Shown one piece after another: positions 12,852 through 56,769 of a stretch of 64,000 nucleotides of DNA; position 1 is the first letter of the stretch; the number at the start of each line of letters is the position of its first letter. Position numbers and translations under genes: made by a program. The DNA comes from an uncultured Acidobacteriota bacterium (GTDB lineage: Bacteria > Actinomycetota > Acidimicrobiia > Spongiisociales > ZC4RG35). The DNA lies in the NCBI GenBank assembly GCA_963810465.1, contig CAWENM010000003.1, positions 257,578-321,577 of the forward strand. The letters run 5' to 3'. The notes under the pieces were generated by a model that made no database searches, had not been told where the DNA came from, and saw nothing but the letters and a program-made list of their open reading frames with translations.

Positions 12852-14005
12852 GAGCTCCTCATTGCGATCATCCAGGCAGGTGCCCAGGCCTGGTCGGGTG
12901 CGACCGACACTGTCGTGACTCCCATACGGTGAAATCCGACCACGGTCTGGGATGTCGAGGCCGACGCAGTCATCAGGACGGTCGTCGGGAAGTCGCCCGC
13001 CAGTAGTTGCTGAACACCCAGGAGGGGCCGGTCGGCTACCCCGGTGACGATGACAAGGGCGCCACCGCCACCCTTCTGCCGGATCCTCCCGGCCACCGCT
13101 TCGATGTCGATCGCTGGGTCGGGTTGCACCAGCGCCAGACGCTCCATCGCCGAGGAGTAGCGGGCGGCGTCGATGGCCTCCGCATCGCCGGCCCAGAGGT
13201 CCGCGTCGAATCCTGACCCGACGAGATGTGTGACGACCGTGGCCGCTCCTGAGACCGCTTTCTCGAACGCGTCCTGTGACTCGTAGCTGGTGCTGCGCAC
13301 ATCGAGAAGTACCAGGGCGCGGGATTGCCACGGGGTCTCGAGCTGACGGATCATCAACTCATCGGTTCGAGCCGATGATGGCCAATGGACCCGTCGCAGG
13401 TCGTCGCCTTGTTGATACTCACGCAATGTGTAGAAGTCCTCGCCTCCGCGCTGGGCGTGCTCGGGGCGGGACGCCTGCATGGCCGGGTCCTGGCCCCGGA
13501 CAATCGGGAACCCGCTCAGCTCCTCGACGGCGGGATAGACCACGATCCGGTCCGCCGGGCCGGTCAGCTCGCTCGTCTCCGCCAGACCGAGAGGATCGCT
13601 CACCCGCGCCATCGTCGGCCCGACCCGGTAGACGCCACGAGGACGGCAGGTGACCCGATAGGTGGCCGTCGCCGACTCCTTTGCCTTGAGCCGCGCCACT
13701 TCGAACACGGCCACACCGAGACGGTTCACGTCGTCTTCGATGGAGAGACGGCTGAGACTGTGTCGCGCGGTGTTCTCGATCAGCAGCGTCACGGTCGTGG
13801 TCTCGCCGTCGTGAACCGTGGACGAGCCGAGTCTCCGGCTCACCTCGAGGCTTGGCCGACGTCTCCGCACCTGGATCAGGGCTACGGCCTGGGCCAGGAG
13901 GAGGAACACGCCGGTGAGGAGCAATTCGACCTCACCGAGGGCATACCAGAGGACGAGAAGGGCAAGACCGGCCCCCGACAGGGCCCAGCCTCGCAGTGTC
14001 GGCAT
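12827..14005 (-). CDS. DUF58-domain protein (MoxR-associated)
   Basis: REYQQGDDLRRVHWPSSARTDELMIRQLE is the diagnostic DUF58 motif. N-terminal TM segment. Start overlaps the moxR stop. Confidence 0.85.
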   Translation of the reverse strand: MPTLRGWALSGAGLALLVLWYALGEVELLLTGVFLLLAQAVALIQVRRRRPSLEVSRRLGSSTVHDGETTTVTLLIENTARHSLSRLSIEDDVNRLGVAVFEVARLKAKESATATYRVTCRPRGVYRVGPTMARVSDPLGLAETSELTGPADRIVVYPAVEELSGFPIVRGQDPAMQASRPEHAQRGGEDFYTLREYQQGDDLRRVHWPSSARTDELMIRQLETPWQSRALVLLDVRSTSYESQDAFEKAVSGAATVVTHLVGSGFDADLWAGDAEAIDAARYSSAMERLALVQPDPAIDIEAVAGRIRQKGGGGALVIVTGVADRPLLGVQQLLAGDFPTTVLMTASASTSQTVVGFHRMGVTTVSVAPDQAWAPAWMIAMRSSWTTASVG

Positions 14006-14984
14006 CAGGTGGCGATCCGGGAGGTGGTGCCCGGCACCCTCAGCCTGTTCATCAGGTCTTCGATGACGTCGGGGAGGGTCTCGCCACGCATCTGGGCCTC
14101 GGGCCGCAGGGCCATGCGATGCTCCAACACCGGGTGGGCCAGCAGCTTGATGTCGTCGGGCGTGACGTACTCCCTGCCCTGAGAGGCGGCTCGCGCCCTC
14201 GACAGCCGTTGGAGGAACAGCGCCGACCGTGGCGATGCTCCGAGCAGGACATCCGGATGCTGGCGGGTTCCGTCGACCAGGTCGATGATGTAGGTCTTGA
14301 CCGACGAGGAGACCGTCACCTCACGGGCCACCACAACGAGCTCTTCGATCTCCTCGACGGAGACCACGGGCTCCAGGTCGAGGAAGGTCGAGCGAACCCC
14401 GTGTGTGTCGAGAATCTCGAGCTCTTTCTGCCGACTCGGATACCCGATGACCACCCTCATCATGAACCTGTCCAGCTGGGACTCGGGTAGGGGATAGGTC
14501 CCCTCGTGCTCCAGAGGGTTCTGGGTGGCCATGACCATGAAGGGAACGGCAGGGGGCGGGTCACACCGTCGGAGGTGACCTGGCGCTCCTCCATCGCCTC
14601 GAGGAGGGCGGATTGTGTCTTCGGGCTCGCCCGGTTGATCTCGTCCCCAACCACGATGTTGGCGAAGATCGGGCCGGGTTTGAACTCGAATTCGTTGCGG
14701 TTGCGGTCCCAGACGGACACGCCGGTGACGTCGGAGGGGAGGAGGTCCGGTGTGAATTGGACTCGTTGGAACTCGCTGTGGATGGAGCGGGCAACGGATT
14801 TGGCCAACTGCGTCTTCCCGACCCCGGGAACGTCTTCGACCAGGACGTGCCCCTCGGCCACCAGGGCGAGCAGCACCAGCTCGACCACATCCCGCTTCCC
14901 CTGAATGACCTTCTCGACGTTGGTGGCGATCAGGTCGAATCGTCTCGAGAACGCTTCGATTTGCTGGGCGGATACCACGGCCAT
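14005..14984 (-). pseudogene. moxR: MoxR-family AAA+ ATPase interrupted by an apparent -1 frameshift (two ORFs, 14460..14984 and 14005..14538)
   Basis: The N-terminal ORF carries Walker A ([10 protein letters not shown]), Walker B ([10 protein letters not shown]) and ...VTRPLP. The C-terminal ORF continues in another frame with [26 protein letters not shown], the canonical MoxR sensor region. Inserting one C in the run near 14536 restores [15 protein letters not shown]. Confidence 0.85.
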
Positions 14985-15920: not shown

Positions 15921-16418
15921 ATGGCACGGGTCCTTGTATTGAACGCCAGCTACGAGCCGCTCTCGGTGGTGACCACACGCCGGGCGGTCGTCCTCGTCCT
16001 CAACCAGAAGGCCAGCGTCGTCGTGGGGAAAGACGAGACGTGGAGCTCTGAGAGCGCCTCGATCGAAGTTCCCTCTGTGGTGCGTCTGACTCGATACGTG
16101 AAGGTTCCGTATCGCCGCGCCGCCCCCGTCACCCGACGTGCCGTCTTCGGGCGTGACGGCCATCGCTGCCAATACTGCGGAGGGCCGGCCGAGTCCCTCG
16201 ACCATGTGCTGCCCCGATCACGCGGTGGAGACCACAGCTGGGAGAACGTCGTCGCATGTTGTCGCCCTTGCAACATCTCCAAGGGGGATCGTCTCCCGAA
16301 AGAAGCCGGGCTCCGGCTGAGCAACAAGCCGGGCCCGCCACGACGGTATGCGTGGATCTACGCCTCCACCGGCTATCAGGTCGACCCGGCCTGGCATCCC
16401 TATCTCGAAGTCGCGTAG
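15921..16418 (+). CDS. HNH endonuclease
   Basis: HRCQYCGGPAESLDHVLPRSRGGDHSWENVVACCRPCNISKG is the HNH motif with Cys ligands. 165 aa. Confidence 0.8.
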   Translation: MARVLVLNASYEPLSVVTTRRAVVLVLNQKASVVVGKDETWSSESASIEVPSVVRLTRYVKVPYRRAAPVTRRAVFGRDGHRCQYCGGPAESLDHVLPRSRGGDHSWENVVACCRPCNISKGDRLPKEAGLRLSNKPGPPRRYAWIYASTGYQVDPAWHPYLEVA

Positions 16419-17155: not shown

Positions 17156-17569
17156 GTGTTCCTTGGCGAGTACTTCCACAGTCTCGACGGGAAGAGCCGG
17201 GTGGTCATGCCCTCCGGTTTTCGCCGTGATCTCGAAGACGGTTGTGTCGTCACCAAAGGCCAGGACCGTCAGCTCGTCCTCTTCCCGTCCGGTGAGTTCG
17301 AGGCGAGGGCGGCGGAGGTGACCGGCATGCAGCAGAACCGCTCCGGACGGCGCTTCTCTCGCACGGTCTTCTCAGGTGCTGATCTCCAGACGCTCGACAA
17401 GTCGGGCCGGGTGCTGATCAAGCCCGACCTGAGGGACTTCGCAGATCTGGAGACTGGCACAGAGATCGCGGTGATCGGTGTCTACGACCACGTGGAGCTG
17501 TGGAACAAGACGCTCTTCCTCGAGGACCGCGCCGCAGGTGATCAGAGCTACCTGGAGGAGGACGAGTAA
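17156..17569 (+). CDS. mraZ: Transcriptional regulator MraZ
   Basis: FLGEYFHSLDGKSRVVMPSGFR gives the duplicated SpoVT/AbrB-like halves. First gene of the dcw cluster. GTG start. Confidence 0.9.
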   Translation: MFLGEYFHSLDGKSRVVMPSGFRRDLEDGCVVTKGQDRQLVLFPSGEFEARAAEVTGMQQNRSGRRFSRTVFSGADLQTLDKSGRVLIKPDLRDFADLETGTEIAVIGVYDHVELWNKTLFLEDRAAGDQSYLEEDE

Positions 17570-34142: not shown

Positions 34143-37100
34143 CTAGCCGGTCGTGGTCGGATCGACCACCAACGAGACAGTCCGCCGATCGATTTCGAAC
34201 GACTCGCCACGGTCGTCGTCGGACTCGTTGATCGAGATCGCGAGCACCTCGGCACCGATCTCCGCTGCATGGGTGAAGATGGCGGAGCGAATCAGCGGGT
34301 CTTCGCTCTTCCACTGCAGAACCACCCGGTCGGTCACGTCCAGGCCCGCCTCCCGTCGCAGCCGCTGTACCCGGCTGATCACCTCCCTGGCTATGCCCTC
34401 GAGAAGCAATTCATCCGACACATGAGTGTCGAGAGCCACCGCGAAGACGACGCCGGCCTCGACCACGGTTTCGTCCCGCGGCGTGCGCTCGATTAGCAAA
34501 TCCGACAAGCCGAGGTCGCGCCCGCCGATGGAGACTGTGCCGCCCTCGAGGACCGCTTCGAGATCGTCGGGTTGCAGAGCGGCGATGGAAGCGGCTGCCT
34601 CGGGCATCGCCGACCCGAACAGCGGCCCGAGGATTCGGAAGTTGGCCTTGGCCGACAGGTGGACCAGCGCCCCCTCGTCAGATGAGGTGATCACCTCCCT
34701 CACATTGAGCTCGTCTGCAATCACCTCAGAGTGCGTCTCCACTGCCCGGGCAACGATGGGATCACGGGCGAGCACCGTCAGCCGCATCAAGGGCTGACGG
34801 ACGCGGAGACCCTCTCTCTTGCGAAGGTTCCGGCCCAGGCGAACCACCTCCCTGACCACCCCCATCGCCGATTCCAGGTCCTGGTCGATGAGGGCGGTCT
34901 CTGCTTCGGGGAAATCGCGGTGATGGACGCTTGTCACCGCATCCGGGTTATGACGTGCGACCAGGTCCTGATAGAGGTGCTCGGTGATAAATGGCAGGAC
35001 CGGGGCGAGCACCTCGATGAAGGTGGTCAGCACTTCGTACAGGGTGGCGAAGGCAGCCAACTTGTCGGCATCGCCTTCACCCGACTCACCTCGGGCCCGC
35101 CAAAACCGACGTCGGGAGCGGCGGACGTACCAGTTGGTGAGGTGATCGATGAACCCCAGAGTGGGTGGCACGACGTTGTAGAGGTAGTAGCCCTCCATTT
35201 GGGTGTTGACCTCGGAGACGAGGCTCTGCAGGACGGACAGGATCCATCGATCCAGCTCCGGCCGCTCATCGGGAGGCGGAGCCATCTCGAGATCGGCAAC
35301 GGTGATGCCGTCGGCCTCGGCGTAGGTGGTGAAGAAGCTGTAGGTGTTCCACATTGGCAGCAGGACCGTGCGGACTACCTCTGCGACCCCATCGCTGCTG
35401 AAGCGGAGGGGCTCGGCTCGGAGCACCGGCGAGTTGATGAGGAAGGCGCGCAACGCATCGGCGCCCATGTGATCGAAGATCCCCGATGGGTCCGGATAGT
35501 TCTTAAGGCTCTTGGACATCTTTCGCCCGTCCTCGGCCAGGATCAGCCCGTTGACCACGCAGTTCTCGAACGCAGGGGCGTCGAACAGAGCGGTGGAGAG
35601 GACGATGAGCGTGTAGAACCAGCCCCGGGTCTGGTCGAGCCCCTCTGCGATGAACTTGGCGGGGAAGGCGGCCTCGAATCGCTCGGCATTCTCGAACGGG
35701 TAGTGGAGCATCCCGTAGGGCATCGAGCCCGATTCGAACCAGCCGTCGAGGACCTCGGGGACCCTGATCATCGATCCTCCGCAGGACGAGCAGGCCCACC
35801 CGATCTCATCGACGACGTGTTTGTGGAGGTCGGCGGGCCGTTGGCCGGAGAGACTCTCCAACTCGTCGAGGGATCCGACGGCGACCGCTTCGTCACACCC
35901 GGTGCATTCCCAGACCGGGATGCATGAGCCCCAGTACCGGTTACGGCTGACCGCCCAATCACGTGCATTCGCCACCCAGTTCCCGAAACGACGGCTTCCC
36001 ACGTAGTCCGGGACCCAGTGGATGGTGTCATTGATCTCCACCATGCGGTCCCTGATCTCCTCGACCCGGATGAACCAGGTGGGAATCGCCTTGTAGATCA
36101 ATGGGGTGCCGGTCCGCTCGCAGAAAGGGTACGAGTGTGTCATACGGTCGGAATGCACGAGGTTGCCCGAGTCCCTCAAGAGCTCGATGAGCGTGTCATC
36201 GGCCACCTTGACGTTCAGACCGGCGACCTCGGCAACCTGCTCTGTGAAGTTTCCCTCGGCGTCGACCGGATCGACCAGGGATTCGATCCCGGCCGCCTTG
36301 AGCGCGTAGAAGTCGGCCTCGCCGTAGGCAGGGGCCATGTGAACCAACCCCGTCCCCTCCTCGACGGTCACCTCCGGTGAAGAGACGATGCGGAATGCCC
36401 CCGACTCACCCTCCCCGATGAAGTGATCGAATGGCGGCCGATAGGGGACACCGAGCAGCTCGGACCCCTTGGCTTCGCCGACCACATTGGGGTCGTCGCC
36501 GAACACGGTCGCAGCGCGCGCAGCGGCGATCCAATAGTGCTCATCGCCCCAATCTTGTTCATCGCCGCTGATGCGGGAATAGACGATGTCCTCGCCGACC
36601 GCTACCGCCAGGTTGCCGGGAAGGGTCCACGGCGTGGTCGTCCAGATGAGGAGGAAGTCGCCGGCCTTCACCGGGCCGCCATCTTGGAGCACCTCGAGCC
36701 TCACGGTGATGGACGGATCCTCCACATCGCGATAGTCCTTGTTCGCCTCGAAATTAGAGAGCGGTGTCGCCGCCCCCCAGGAGTAGGGGAGGACCTTGAA
36801 GTCCTTGTAGACCAGACCCTTGTCCCAGAGCTGTTTGAACACCCACCAGACGGTCTCCATGTACTCGGGGTCCAGGGTCTTGTAGTCGTTCTCGAAGTCG
36901 ACCCAGCGGCCGATCCGCTCGGTGAGAACCTCCCAGTTCTCCGTATTGGCCTGGACAACGCTCCGGGCGGCTTCATTGAACCGGTCGACACCGTATTCGG
37001 CGATCGCCTTGGGACCGGAGATTCCCAGGCGCTTCTCGACCTCGATCTCGATCGGAAGCCCGTGGGTGTCCCAGCCGAACCGCCTCTCGACGCGGTAGCC

Positions 37101-37361
37101 GCGCATGGTCCAATATCGGGGCACCATGTCCTTGATCACGCCGGCCAAGAGGTTGCCGTAGTGCGGGCTCCCTGTGGGGAACGGTGGCCCGTCGTAGAAG
37201 ATGTACTCGTTGTCGGCGGGGCGTCGCTGAACCGATTCCTCGAAGGCCTTGGTCCTGCGCCACAGTTCGAGGATGCCCATTTCCATGGCGGGAATGTCCA
37301 CCGCGGGCTCAACCCGGGTGAAACCGGTACCGGCTCGCTTGTCCTGCGCGTCAGTCGTCAT
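34143..37361 (-). CDS. ileS: Isoleucine--tRNA ligase (type 2, eukaryote-like form common in actinobacteria)
   Basis: HYGNLLAG (HIGH), KMSKSLKN (KMSKS), a large editing domain and the C-terminal Zn-free extension. Proposed start MTTDAQDKRAG at 37361. The track's 109-aa N-terminal extension is Arg-rich and reaches into the divergent gene region. Confidence 0.9.
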   Translation of the reverse strand: MTTDAQDKRAGTGFTRVEPAVDIPAMEMGILELWRRTKAFEESVQRRPADNEYIFYDGPPFPTGSPHYGNLLAGVIKDMVPRYWTMRGYRVERRFGWDTHGLPIEIEVEKRLGISGPKAIAEYGVDRFNEAARSVVQANTENWEVLTERIGRWVDFENDYKTLDPEYMETVWWVFKQLWDKGLVYKDFKVLPYSWGAATPLSNFEANKDYRDVEDPSITVRLEVLQDGGPVKAGDFLLIWTTTPWTLPGNLAVAVGEDIVYSRISGDEQDWGDEHYWIAAARAATVFGDDPNVVGEAKGSELLGVPYRPPFDHFIGEGESGAFRIVSSPEVTVEEGTGLVHMAPAYGEADFYALKAAGIESLVDPVDAEGNFTEQVAEVAGLNVKVADDTLIELLRDSGNLVHSDRMTHSYPFCERTGTPLIYKAIPTWFIRVEEIRDRMVEINDTIHWVPDYVGSRRFGNWVANARDWAVSRNRYWGSCIPVWECTGCDEAVAVGSLDELESLSGQRPADLHKHVVDEIGWACSSCGGSMIRVPEVLDGWFESGSMPYGMLHYPFENAERFEAAFPAKFIAEGLDQTRGWFYTLIVLSTALFDAPAFENCVVNGLILAEDGRKMSKSLKNYPDPSGIFDHMGADALRAFLINSPVLRAEPLRFSSDGVAEVVRTVLLPMWNTYSFFTTYAEADGITVADLEMAPPPDERPELDRWILSVLQSLVSEVNTQMEGYYLYNVVPPTLGFIDHLTNWYVRRSRRRFWRARGESGEGDADKLAAFATLYEVLTTFIEVLAPVLPFITEHLYQDLVARHNPDAVTSVHHRDFPEAETALIDQDLESAMGVVREVVRLGRNLRKREGLRVRQPLMRLTVLARDPIVARAVETHSEVIADELNVREVITSSDEGALVHLSAKANFRILGPLFGSAMPEAAASIAALQPDDLEAVLEGGTVSIGGRDLGLSDLLIERTPRDETVVEAGVVFAVALDTHVSDELLLEGIAREVISRVQRLRREAGLDVTDRVVLQWKSEDPLIRSAIFTHAAEIGAEVLAISINESDDDRGESFEIDRRTVSLVVDPTTTG

Positions 37362-37468
37362 GGGAGTCGGAGATGCTAGGGCGCGGCCTCGAGTTGCACC
37401 CTTCGGCGAAACCCGCCCGATAGCGGTCGTGCGTTGGTAGGGTTTCCGCCCTTTAGCAGGGGTTTCCC

Positions 37469-37840
37469 GTGGCCAGACAGCTCGCCAAGTCAACCGTAGA
37501 CAAATTCCGGTCGAGACTGGAAGAGGAGCAGGCGCGGCTTCAGGGGCTCGTCGACGATTACGAGCAAGAATTGGAAGAGGCGCGACTCTCAGAGAGCTCG
37601 TCCGACCGCAGTCCCGACCCCGGCAATGCCGAAGCCAGCTCGACGAAGCTGGAGTACGCCAAGGAGCTCTCGATCGAGCAGAACACACTCGATCTACTCA
37701 GCAAAGTCGAGCGGGCGTTGGAGAAGATAGAACAGGGCACATACGGCATATGCGAGAGCTGTGGCAAGTCGATTCCCCTGGCCAGACTCGACGTCCTTCC
37801 CTACGTGACGCTCTGCGTCGACTGCGCACGCAAGGCTTGA
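37469..37840 (+). CDS. TraR/DksA-family C4-type zinc-finger regulator
   Basis: Coiled-coil N-terminus plus C-terminal CESCGKSIPLARLDVLPYVTLCVDC (CxxC-17-CxxC). Divergent from ileS and upstream of lspA. Confidence 0.75.
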   Translation: MARQLAKSTVDKFRSRLEEEQARLQGLVDDYEQELEEARLSESSSDRSPDPGNAEASSTKLEYAKELSIEQNTLDLLSKVERALEKIEQGTYGICESCGKSIPLARLDVLPYVTLCVDCARKA

Positions 37841-38298
37841 TCCGCCGGTACGCCCTAGGGGTCGGGTTGGCCGCGTTCGTCGTTCTCCTCGACGTGATCA
37901 CCAAGCGATGGGCATCGATCGAGCTCGTCGACAGCGACATAGTGATCATCCCCAACTTCCTGGTGCTCACCTATACCGAGAACCCTGGCGCTGCCTTCTC
38001 GATGTTCGAGAACGCCGGCCCGTTCTTCGGCATCGCGGCCATCACTGTCAGTGCGGCGCTCCTCTGGTCTCTCCGGCTGGAGCGCCCGTGGATGGAGACG
38101 GCCGCCTACGGCCTGATCATCGGTGGCGCGCTGGGGAATCTCGTCGACAGGGTGTTTCGCGGGCCCGGTCTGCTCGATGGGAGGGTCATCGACTGGATCG
38201 ATCTCTGGTGGATCCCGACTTTCAACGTGGCCGACATGTCGATCACGATCGCGGTCGGGCTGCTACTGATACACGCGTGGCTGACACGCTCGACCTAG
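37837..38298 (+). CDS. lspA: Lipoprotein signal peptidase (signal peptidase II)
   Basis: TTG at 37837 overlaps the upstream TGA. Four TM helices. Conserved LspA motifs NPGAAFS and FNVAD (catalytic Asp). Confidence 0.8.
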   Translation: MIRRYALGVGLAAFVVLLDVITKRWASIELVDSDIVIIPNFLVLTYTENPGAAFSMFENAGPFFGIAAITVSAALLWSLRLERPWMETAAYGLIIGGALGNLVDRVFRGPGLLDGRVIDWIDLWWIPTFNVADMSITIAVGLLLIHAWLTRST

Positions 38299-54232: not shown

Positions 54233-55003
54233 GTGTTCGACAGCGTCGACTCGGCCGCCTACATCGTCCAGATCCTGATCGCTTTCGGGGCGGGGATCAT
54301 CTCGTTCGTATCTCCGTGCGTCCTGCCCCTTCTGCCCGGCTATCTATCGATGATGTCTGGCTACTCGGCGAGCCAGCTGGAGGAGGGCGATGTGTCCACG
54401 GCCCGGATGACCCGGGTAATCCTCCTCTTCATCGCAGGCTTCACTGTCGTGTTCGTCGCCCTTGGCGCAATCGCTACCGGTCTCCGCACCTGGCTGGTGC
54501 AGAACCTGACGACATTCACCCGGCTGGCCGGGCTGACCGTGATCGTCTTCGGAGTGCTCATGGTGGCCATGGCGGTGTCCGATCGAGGTCCGCTCGCCAC
54601 AGTTGGGAGGGAGCGCAGGCTCGATGTCCGCCCCAGTCGGCTCGGGTCGTGGGGTCCCCCTGTCATGGGGCTGGCCTTCGGATTCGCCTGGACGCCTTGC
54701 ATCGGACCGGTCCTCACCGTGATCCTCGCCACAGCCTCGCTCCAGGAGACTCTCGGCCAGGGCATGCTGCTCCTTCTCGCCTATTCCCTTGGACTCGGAG
54801 TGCCCTTCCTCCTGAGCGGCCTCGGGCTGTTCAAGCTGTTCGGGCGGCTCAAGCCCTACCTGCGTCCGATCAACATCGCTTCGGGAGTGTTGTTGACCCT
54901 GTTCGGCGTTCTCATGTTGACTGGAAACGTGGGCACCTTGTCGAGCTGGTTCTCTGACGTTCTGCTCTCGATACCGTTCCTCCGTGACCTGGCGACGATC
55001 TGA
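54233..55003 (+). CDS. ccdA: Cytochrome c-type biogenesis / thiol-disulfide transfer membrane protein CcdA (DsbD family)
   Basis: SPCVLPLLPGYLS and TPCIGP carry the two conserved Cys. Six TM helices. Confidence 0.88.
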   Translation: MFDSVDSAAYIVQILIAFGAGIISFVSPCVLPLLPGYLSMMSGYSASQLEEGDVSTARMTRVILLFIAGFTVVFVALGAIATGLRTWLVQNLTTFTRLAGLTVIVFGVLMVAMAVSDRGPLATVGRERRLDVRPSRLGSWGPPVMGLAFGFAWTPCIGPVLTVILATASLQETLGQGMLLLLAYSLGLGVPFLLSGLGLFKLFGRLKPYLRPINIASGVLLTLFGVLMLTGNVGTLSSWFSDVLLSIPFLRDLATI

Positions 55004-55822
55004 ATGAGCCTCACCGAGCCGCATCTGGCCCCGTCGGCACCCGAGCTGGTTTGGTTCGGAGGCGCCGATGCGATCCGTTTCCTCAATGATTTGATCAGTC
55101 AGGAGATCGGCGACATGGAGCCCGGGTCGGTCCGACGATCGCTGCTGCTCACGCCGCAGGGCAAGCTCGACCACATCCTCTGGGTTCTCCGAGGAGACGA
55201 TGAGGTGGGCTTGGTGGTGGATGCCGACCAGGGCGAGGATCTGGCAGCCAAGCTGGGCCGTTATCGGATCCGGGTCGATGTCGAGATCGCTCCGTCGACC
55301 CTCGAGCGGTGGCTCGTCGTTGCGCCGTTCGGGGCGGATCCCGGGCGGTGGACTGGCGATCGTGGCGAATTGATGGCCGACGTGTCCTGGTCGAACCTCG
55401 AGCGGACGCTGGTGGTGGGGGAGAGGCCGGACCTTCCGTGATGGAAGTCGAGGATTACGAGTCTGCTGCGCATTGAAGCCGGGGAGCCACTGATGGGCGT
55501 GGATGTCACCGACGCCACCATCCCTCAGGAGACCGGTCTCGTCGCGGAGACGATCTCATTCAACAAGGGGTGCTTTCTCGGTCAGGAGTTGGTAGCCCGT
55601 CTCGACAGTCGGGGAGGACGGGTCAACCACCATCTCCGCATCCTGCGCTTCGACGGTTCGGCGCCGGAGGTGGGCACCGAGGTCACCAAGGATGGCGAGC
55701 AGGTGGGGGTGCTCAGCTCGGCAGCAGACCGTATCGGGCTGGCATTACTCCGGCGGGGGGTCGAACCGGGGGATACGGTGACGGTGGGTGACGGTCGAGC
55801 GTCGGTGGATGCGGTTCCGTAG
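55004..55822 (+). pseudogene. YgfZ/GcvT-like folate-binding protein interrupted by an in-frame TGA at 55439-55441
   Basis: ORF 55004..55441 has the N-terminal GcvT-like domain. The same reading frame continues right after the TGA with WKSRITSLLRIEAGEPLMGVDV...FNKGCFLGQELVARLDSRG, the YgfZ KGCY(F)xGQE signature. ORF 55493..55822 in the track is that downstream portion. Confidence 0.75.
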
Positions 55823-55856
55823 AGTGACCCGCTCGGGCGTAGACATCAGCCACGTG

Positions 55857-55940
55857 TGCCGGAGGCGGGATTCGAACCCGCACGGGGTTTCCCCCAATGG
55901 TGTTTGAGACCATATTGTCTACCAGTTCCAACACTCCGGC
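55857..55940 (-). tRNA. tRNA-Leu (anticodon CAA), class II with long variable arm; CCA not encoded
   Basis: Reverse complement folds as acceptor GCCGGAG/CTCCGGC, D-stem TTG/CAA with GGTAGA loop, anticodon stem ATGGT/ACCAT with loop CTCAAAC, 15-nt variable arm, T-arm GCGGG-TTCGAAT-CCCGC, discriminator A. Closely parallels E. coli tRNA-Leu(CAA). Confidence 0.9.
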
Positions 55941-55951
55941 GTGACCACATT

Positions 55952-56769
55952 TTACCGGTCAATGCTTGGGACCGATAAAGGTGTCCATATAGGCCACATC
56001 TTCACGGCGGGCGATCGAAATGTCACGCGGGGTGGTCTGCGTCCAATGACTCCGAGCAGATCTAGGGCGTCGGTGAAGATCCCCAGGATGTCGGTGGAAA
56101 CATTGGTGAACATGTAGCGCGGATAGCGATAACGCCGGGGACCGGATCGGAGCTTCCGGATCACTTCGTTGACGTGCCGGTTGCCGTCAGAATGGATCAG
56201 ACCACGGACCAGGGCCTTGGGATGACCAGCAATGATCACGTCCTGCCACCGTTCGAGCTCGATGTGACGATTGTGTTTGCGGCCAGGGCCATGTTGCGGG
56301 AAGAGGCAAAGCCAGTGTTTCCAGTCGGAGTAGACCTCGACGCATCCCTTCTTCGAGATGAACCCCACTTGCTCGGTGGCTCGGGTGACGACGATTGAGC
56401 CGGCGATCTCGTCGATGATGTCGGGTACTTGAGGTCACACACGATCCGCAAGCGATAGACGTCCCGAGGCACGAGGCAGAGGCAGCCGTCGCCCAAGTAG
56501 GCCCCGAGGAGATATGCATACGCCTCCTCGTCGACCCATCCGCCGATGCATCGAAAGCAGGTGGCTTGGCGTCTGCCGGACCAAAATTTGGTGCGGCCAC
56601 CGCTACCCGAAGCCACGCCGACCCGCCAGTCTCGAATCGTGCCGCGGGGAATCCCGAGACGACGGCCGATCTCGCAGTCGTTGATCCCGATGTCGATCAG
56701 TTGGATAGCTCGGCGGTATTCCTCTTCCGACCTCATGACGTGAACCCTTTCTTCGAAGGTACAAGCCAC
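55952..56769 (-). pseudogene. Free-standing HTH plus double-LAGLIDADG homing-endonuclease-like gene, frameshifted (-1)
   Basis: ORF 56236..56769 has an HTH (IQLIDIGINDCEIGRRLGIPRGTIRDWR) and a first LAGLIDADG motif (YLLGAYLGDGCL). ORF 55952..56368 in another frame carries the second motif (KALVRGLIHSDGN). Adding 1 nt after codons CDLKYP joins them into about 270 aa (…CDLKYPDIIDEIAGSIVVTRATEQVGFISKKG…). Confidence 0.65.

Follow-up and report, generated by a model that had tools for sequence, protein, structure and literature searches.

The in-frame TGA that interrupts the ygfZ gene in the window (the whole 64,000-nucleotide stretch of DNA analyzed here) is shown by alignment with closely related genes to be the product of a compensating pair of frameshifts and not of a nonsense substitution. 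The same kind of lesion was found in moxR and in an HTH-containing gene next to ygfZ. The two ygfZ indels lie 24 nt apart, their net effect on gene length is zero, and eight codons from the TGA on (*WKSRITS) are out of register. We consider it likely that the pair is a consensus error of the metagenome assembly at strain-variable sites.

The interrupted gene

The open reading frame 55004-55441 stops at the TGA at 55439-55441, and the same frame continues beyond it to a TAG at 55820-55822, giving 273 codons in total (Table 1). An earlier, sequence-only reading of this DNA had described this continuation through the TGA and had assigned the gene to the YgfZ-like proteins. Both observations were borne out, with the caveat that the continuous frame includes the out-of-register stretch WKSRITS. 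The N-terminal part of the joined protein matched the GCV_T folate-binding domain (PF01571; E=1.6e-8, 34.6 bits, cut-off 25.6) and its C-terminal part matched the CAF17 C-terminal barrel (PF25455; 33-35 bits, cut-off 25.7), while the joined protein scored 67.8 bits against the NCBIfam YgfZ model TIGR03317 (cut-off 49). Residues 188-195 read KGCFLGQE and were invariant in an alignment of the window protein with 23 relatives; we take them to be the conserved YgfZ motif K-G-C-[YF]-x-G-Q-E with its essential Cys, a definition that reportedly goes back to Waller et al. in 2010. In its GCV_T-like domain, CAF17 barrel, TIGR03317 score and KGCFLGQE motif, the gene resembles those encoding E. coli YgfZ and Iba57-CAF17 (COG0354), and its 272 aa are the length of the Acidimicrobiia orthologues of this group. 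It differs from the family in that codons 146-153 are out of register, beginning with the TGA, which was seen in no other member.

More than 2,000 relatives were present in the protein collection. Among the 120 listed, nearly all were 272-288 aa long with 100% query coverage, and none ended at the point equivalent to the TGA, as would be expected if there were two genes; the orthologous ygfZ is thus a single gene. The uninterrupted frame of about 270-290 aa that is missing from the window was present in three sibling contigs (L001, L045 and L006, described below) as well as in nearly all of these 120 relatives. The closest relative, P0001, is intact, 272 aa long and 96% identical to the window protein. 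A tblastn search found one ygfZ locus and no second copy within the window. The two fragments of the window gene (145 aa and 109 aa) correspond to P0121 and P0123, which are recorded on a single NCBI/ENA contig of 404,008 bp, presumably the source of the window, and nowhere else in the protein collection.

Table 1. Genes, lesions and single-base indels of the window (positions are those of the window).
Feature	Position	Strand	Remarks
moxR	14005..14979	-	a 1-nt deletion at 14544, private to the window and inside the window-private divergent patch 13622-14983, splits the gene
Indel	14544		splits moxR
Indel	14982		directly upstream of moxR
Indel	37397		intergenic, upstream of ileS
DsbD/CcdA-like membrane protein gene	54233..55003	+	ends ATC TGA directly before the ygfZ ATG
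ygfZ/CAF17-family gene (folate-binding Fe-S cluster assembly factor)	55004..55822	+	272 sense-codon positions, broken at codon 146; identified by Pfam and TIGR03317
1-nt deletion, window-private	55438..55439	+	window CCG|TG; from DNA alignments and codon table
Out-of-register segment	55438..55461	+	one base to the left reads GTG ATG GAA GTC GAG GAT TAC GAG (VMEVEDYE)
In-frame TGA	55439..55441	+	produced by the shift: bases 2 and 3 of the Val/Thr/Leu146 codon, then the A of ATG147
Indels	55439 and 55462 (the deletion and insertion also listed singly)		ygfZ
1-nt insertion, window-private	55462..55464	+	GAG TCTG CTG CGC; restores the original frame; gap in 10/10 other sequences
C-terminal 109-aa ORF of ygfZ	55493..55822	+	ATG preceded by GGGGAG; recorded as separate protein P0123
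tRNA-Leu(CAA)	55856..55940	-	
Indel (1-nt deletion, window-private)	55941		beside tRNA-Leu, just outside its 5' end
HTH-containing gene	55952..56769	-	called LAGLIDADG gene in the sequence-only reading; broken by the deletions at 56053 and 56422
Indels (two window-private 1-nt deletions)	56053 and 56422		HTH-containing gene

The paired indels

When the window was compared codon by codon with nine related genes, every one of these was seen to keep eight in-frame codons between the two sites, and the -1 and the +1 occurred in the window only. At the site of the deletion the relatives carry CCG ACG (L001 and L045), CCC GTG (L006 and L044) or CCN CTN (others). At the site of the insertion they have exactly one codon (CTG, TCG, GTG, ATG and others) ahead of the Leu or Phe codon that precedes an Arg codon. 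The window strings that bear the indels are CCGTGATGG and, downstream, GAGTCTGCTG. The conserved peptide of this region is found one frame away, in the overlapping ORF 55309-55476, which carries the VMEVEDYE frame and ends in ...SVMEVEDYESAAH; its counterpart in P0001 is TMEVEDYE. The seven residues that follow the TGA in the original frame, WKSRITS, showed no homology within the family, and the alignment resumes at LLRIEAGEP. In the 23 aligned relatives the TGA lies opposite T, A, L, V, P or S, and Trp occurs there in none of them.

These results contradict the proposal of the sequence-only reading that the interruption is a nonsense codon, unlike the indels of moxR and of the neighboring gene, and that it arose by a transition from TGG (Trp).

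Outside the eight shifted codons the window protein and P0001 differ at two residues, and at both of them the window has the family consensus. Therefore, apart from the two indels, the gene shows no sign of decay. The few private substitutions of the window ygfZ match the state found in L006 and L044.

Sibling assemblies

Frameshifts were detected by direct comparison with sibling contigs, a GC3-based frame scan being too noisy. The contig contig_489 of assembly ERZ25039550 (L047, L004 and L001) matches the window with an identity of 99.4-99.8% along 59 kb (L001: 99.79% nucleotide identity over 19 kb), and contig_55399 of ERZ25039469 (L045 and L048) is 99.56% identical over the 19 kb on the ygfZ side. 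Both carry an intact ygfZ of 272 aa, and L001 and L045 belong to assemblies from two samples other than that of the window. In contig_141296 of ERZ25039576 (L006), an identity of about 99.9% extends to position 55188 and is followed by a divergence of about 15% from inside ygfZ (55189) to about 56900; its ygfZ is intact, with 288 aa. The switch in identity at 55189 is a recombination breakpoint, and the locus formed by the 3' part of ygfZ, the tRNA-Leu and the HTH-containing gene is a strain-variable hot spot. L001 (10957-11736) and L045 have an intact HTH-containing gene of 259 aa; in L006 it is heavily decayed, and L044 lacks it. The former designation of this gene as a LAGLIDADG gene could not be established, as only a sub-threshold match to HTH_23 and non-significant matches to I-AniI (E=0.88) and WhiA (E=0.21) were found.

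Two of the sibling contigs have frameshifts of their own. In contig_20734 of ERZ25039591 (L044), which is about 93% identical to the window, ygfZ is split into 162 and 116 aa at a different base, the equivalent of window position 55489 (GAGCCACTG to GAGCC-CTG); the nearby MatE and MFS genes are broken too, and several frameshifts fall within 7.7 kb. In L048, at the equivalent of window position 17522, strains have either A or C and this contig has AC, which leaves an mraZ of 128 instead of 137 aa; it directly exemplifies a single-nucleotide polymorphism rendered as an insertion. The same contig has an additional G at the equivalent of 9104, with a dinB of 314 instead of 392 aa. Exact-site scans of genome_contigs and metagenome_contigs that allowed either allele found no second occurrence of the window ygfZ lesion.

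Indels and divergent patches across the window

The window and contig_489 differ over 59 kb by 200 substitutions and eight single-base indels (Table 1). All eight indels are located where at least four substitutions fall within ±250 bp, a density found at 9.7% of positions. Three- and five-way comparisons covered the regions of seven of them (all but that at 37397), and all seven were private to the window, namely the five in 55439-56422 and both in 14544-14982. Most of the private indels are outside long homopolymers, and three adjoin a private substitution (ACG to -TG, TTTT to -ATT and AATCT to ACTC-). The change at 56422, GTCCGGG to GT-CGGG, is a plain deletion at a point where all known alleles agree.

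The deletion in moxR (GAAGGGCAACGG to GAAGGG-AACGG) splits the gene into ORFs of 174 and 177 aa, while three sibling assemblies have an intact gene of 324 aa. The moxR/DUF58 patch, 13622-14983, contains 86 window-private substitutions, with 72 synonymous against 11 non-synonymous changes (87% synonymous; it is the sole patch tested). This ratio identifies the patch, despite its frameshift, as a functional allele under purifying selection. A free-standing HNH endonuclease gene of 165 aa, conserved in all sibling assemblies, occupies 15921-16418 (+); the moxR end of this patch is about 0.9 kb away. A further patch of raised divergence from contig_489, with about 10 substitutions per kb, occupies 35000-38000. 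The ORF 34143-37688 overstates ileS, which has 1072 aa in the siblings.

Origin of the lesion

Nanopore-only assemblies made with Flye and Medaka retain indels that lead to frameshifts in gene calling (PMC9262707; PMC12313526). The sibling contigs have Flye-style names, which suggests that the ERZ2503xxxx assemblies come from the Nanopore project of PMC12313526, and the window itself would also derive from a Nanopore/Flye-type assembly. The lesions described here resemble the frameshift errors of long-read (Nanopore) metagenome-assembled genomes in that private one-nucleotide indels split conserved genes, vary from assembly to assembly and are missing from near-identical assemblies, where the genes are intact. 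They differ from the homopolymer errors of such genomes in that they cluster at strain-variable patches, often beside a substitution. Such a pattern speaks for mis-resolved strain variants rather than for miscalled homopolymers. Private indels beside private substitutions are what would be expected from multi-nucleotide variants that were resolved incorrectly.

A consensus error of this kind could arise in the following way. Co-occurring strains would differ at these points by clustered (multi-nucleotide) substitutions, and there the long-read consensus would go wrong. A gapped alignment of two alleles of equal length would write each such difference as a paired insertion and deletion, and a consensus or polishing step that took only some of these edits would leave an off-register hybrid. 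The source of the indels would then be mixed-strain reads and not mutation. In ygfZ, CTTCCGTGATGG and GAGTCTGCTGCGC can be rebuilt exactly as the L001 allele (CTTCCG|ACGATGG and GAGC|TGCTGCGC) joined at off-by-one anchors to a form with CCCG|TGATGG and GAGTC|GCT, the latter being seen in L006 and L044. We favor a mixed-strain consensus because the variation is biased toward synonymous changes and the frame-breaking indels affect unrelated conserved genes, at strain-variable patches and in one assembly only. The sibling contigs L048 and L044, with private frameshifts of their own, show errors of the same kind. Of the explanations offered in the sequence-only reading, the sequencing artefact is thus the one we retain, whereas neither its single-nucleotide or nonsense mechanism nor UGA readthrough found support.

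Three points count against an artefact. The second allele that it presupposes (CCN, the eight codons given in Table 1 for the shifted segment, and TCN CTG) was absent from the scans of genome_contigs and metagenome_contigs, the collections in which it was looked for. The hybrid model does not account for all of the window indels, because some, such as that at 56422, are plain deletions. Finally, the HTH-containing gene beside ygfZ is truly decaying in L006, so real decay does occur at this locus.

The principal alternative is that both indels are true and that ygfZ is a very recent, strain-specific pseudogene, produced by two hits or by one complex event such as error-prone synthesis during recombination at a strain-variable locus. 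The gene would then be inactivated, and at most the 145-aa N-terminal and the 109-aa C-terminal fragments would be made. The lesion is indeed present in the deposited sequence, its fragments are recorded as separate proteins on that contig, and an SD-like GGGGAG precedes the ATG at 55493 by 6 nt. The locus is a recombination hot spot, where the identity of L006 to the window drops within ygfZ from about 99.9% to about 85%, and the state of the adjacent HTH-containing gene, decayed in L006 and missing from L044, is also consistent with a real inactivation. Furthermore, ygfZ is dispensable in E. coli. However, the second indel would bring no benefit, because the shifted stretch holds a stop whichever of the two came first, and it is improbable that an otherwise undecayed gene would take two neutral hits within 24 nt of each other. 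Among the hundreds of relatives seen, the sole one with a broken gene was the error-laden L044, where the break is at a different base. The indels co-localize with divergent patches and break unrelated conserved genes, including moxR, whose patch is under strong purifying selection. True heteroduplex repair between alleles of equal length, moreover, cannot change the register or make off-register hybrids. For these reasons we regard a real pseudogene as a possible but rather unlikely explanation.

A variant of it also takes the indels as real and makes them, together with the other window-private indels, a by-product of recombination, the import of short divergent patches at a hot spot associated with mobile genes being itself mutagenic. 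If this were true, clustered -1/+1 frameshifts would knock out flanking housekeeping genes and would be the trace that mutagenesis associated with breaks or recombination leaves in a natural population. We consider this very improbable.

Functional recoding would require UGA readthrough, insertion of selenocysteine, or a ribosome that shifts by -1 at CCG U and by +1 at GAG U and so produces VMEVEDYE. In its favor, the frame is regained exactly after eight codons and the rest of the gene is perfectly conserved. However, five of seven conserved genes that were checked stop at a TGA. One of them is the DsbD/CcdA-like gene immediately upstream, whose TGA lies right before ygfZ and shows that this codon works as a normal stop in this DNA. 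Reassignment of TGA (table 4/25) was also considered and rejected, as the dsbD-like gene, polA, sepF, murC and ftsW end in TGA where the genes of the siblings end; the GC content of the window is 61-68%. Readthrough would give an abnormal product with eight scrambled residues, among them the near-invariant Tyr152.

Selenocysteine had already been judged unlikely in the sequence-only reading, and our results were in keeping with that judgment. Like a bacterial selenoprotein gene, ygfZ has an in-frame UGA within an open frame; unlike one, it has neither a hairpin after the UGA nor a Cys-containing homologue at the site. Folding of the 65 nt from the UGA gave a minimum free energy of -15.1 kcal/mol against a mean of -18.4 for 200 shuffles (z = +1.18), 177 of which folded at least as well, and this comparison revealed no SECIS-like hairpin 3' of the UGA. 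No Cys, Sec or Trp occupies the position of the TGA among the 23 aligned relatives, and the YgfZ family is not known to include selenoproteins. With the +1 frameshift of prfB (RF2), ygfZ shares an in-frame UGA in the early to middle part of the gene and a true continuation in another frame. It would need a -1 followed by a +1 shift, though, and it lacks both the CUU UGA sequence and an SD stimulator at the right spacing; neither a slippery heptamer nor a prfB-like CUU UGA context was found at CTT CCG TGA or at GAG TCT G. As genomes about 99.6-99.8% identical to the window show a plain, unbroken frame and so lack the feature, nothing about it is conserved, and recoding in any of these forms is extremely improbable.

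A single TGG to TGA change, as a nonsense mutation or as a substitution-type error, has virtually no chance of being correct, for although the two codons are one transition apart and the downstream frame is open, it is refuted by an aligned residue that is never W, by the next seven residues that do not align, by the conserved peptide in the neighboring frame and by the DNA gaps on both sides.

Implications

The results serve as a caution that an in-frame stop suggestive of readthrough or recoding can consist of two compensating indels, which are not recognized until the DNA is compared by alignment with that of close relatives. Care is needed when genes are counted, pseudogenes called or metabolism inferred for this metagenome-assembled genome, because lesions at strain-variable patches split ygfZ, moxR and the gene next to ygfZ. 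The broken ygfZ is most likely not a real feature of the organism; a real lesion would mean no more than that one strain had lost a non-essential gene for an Fe-S helper, which is an ordinary event.
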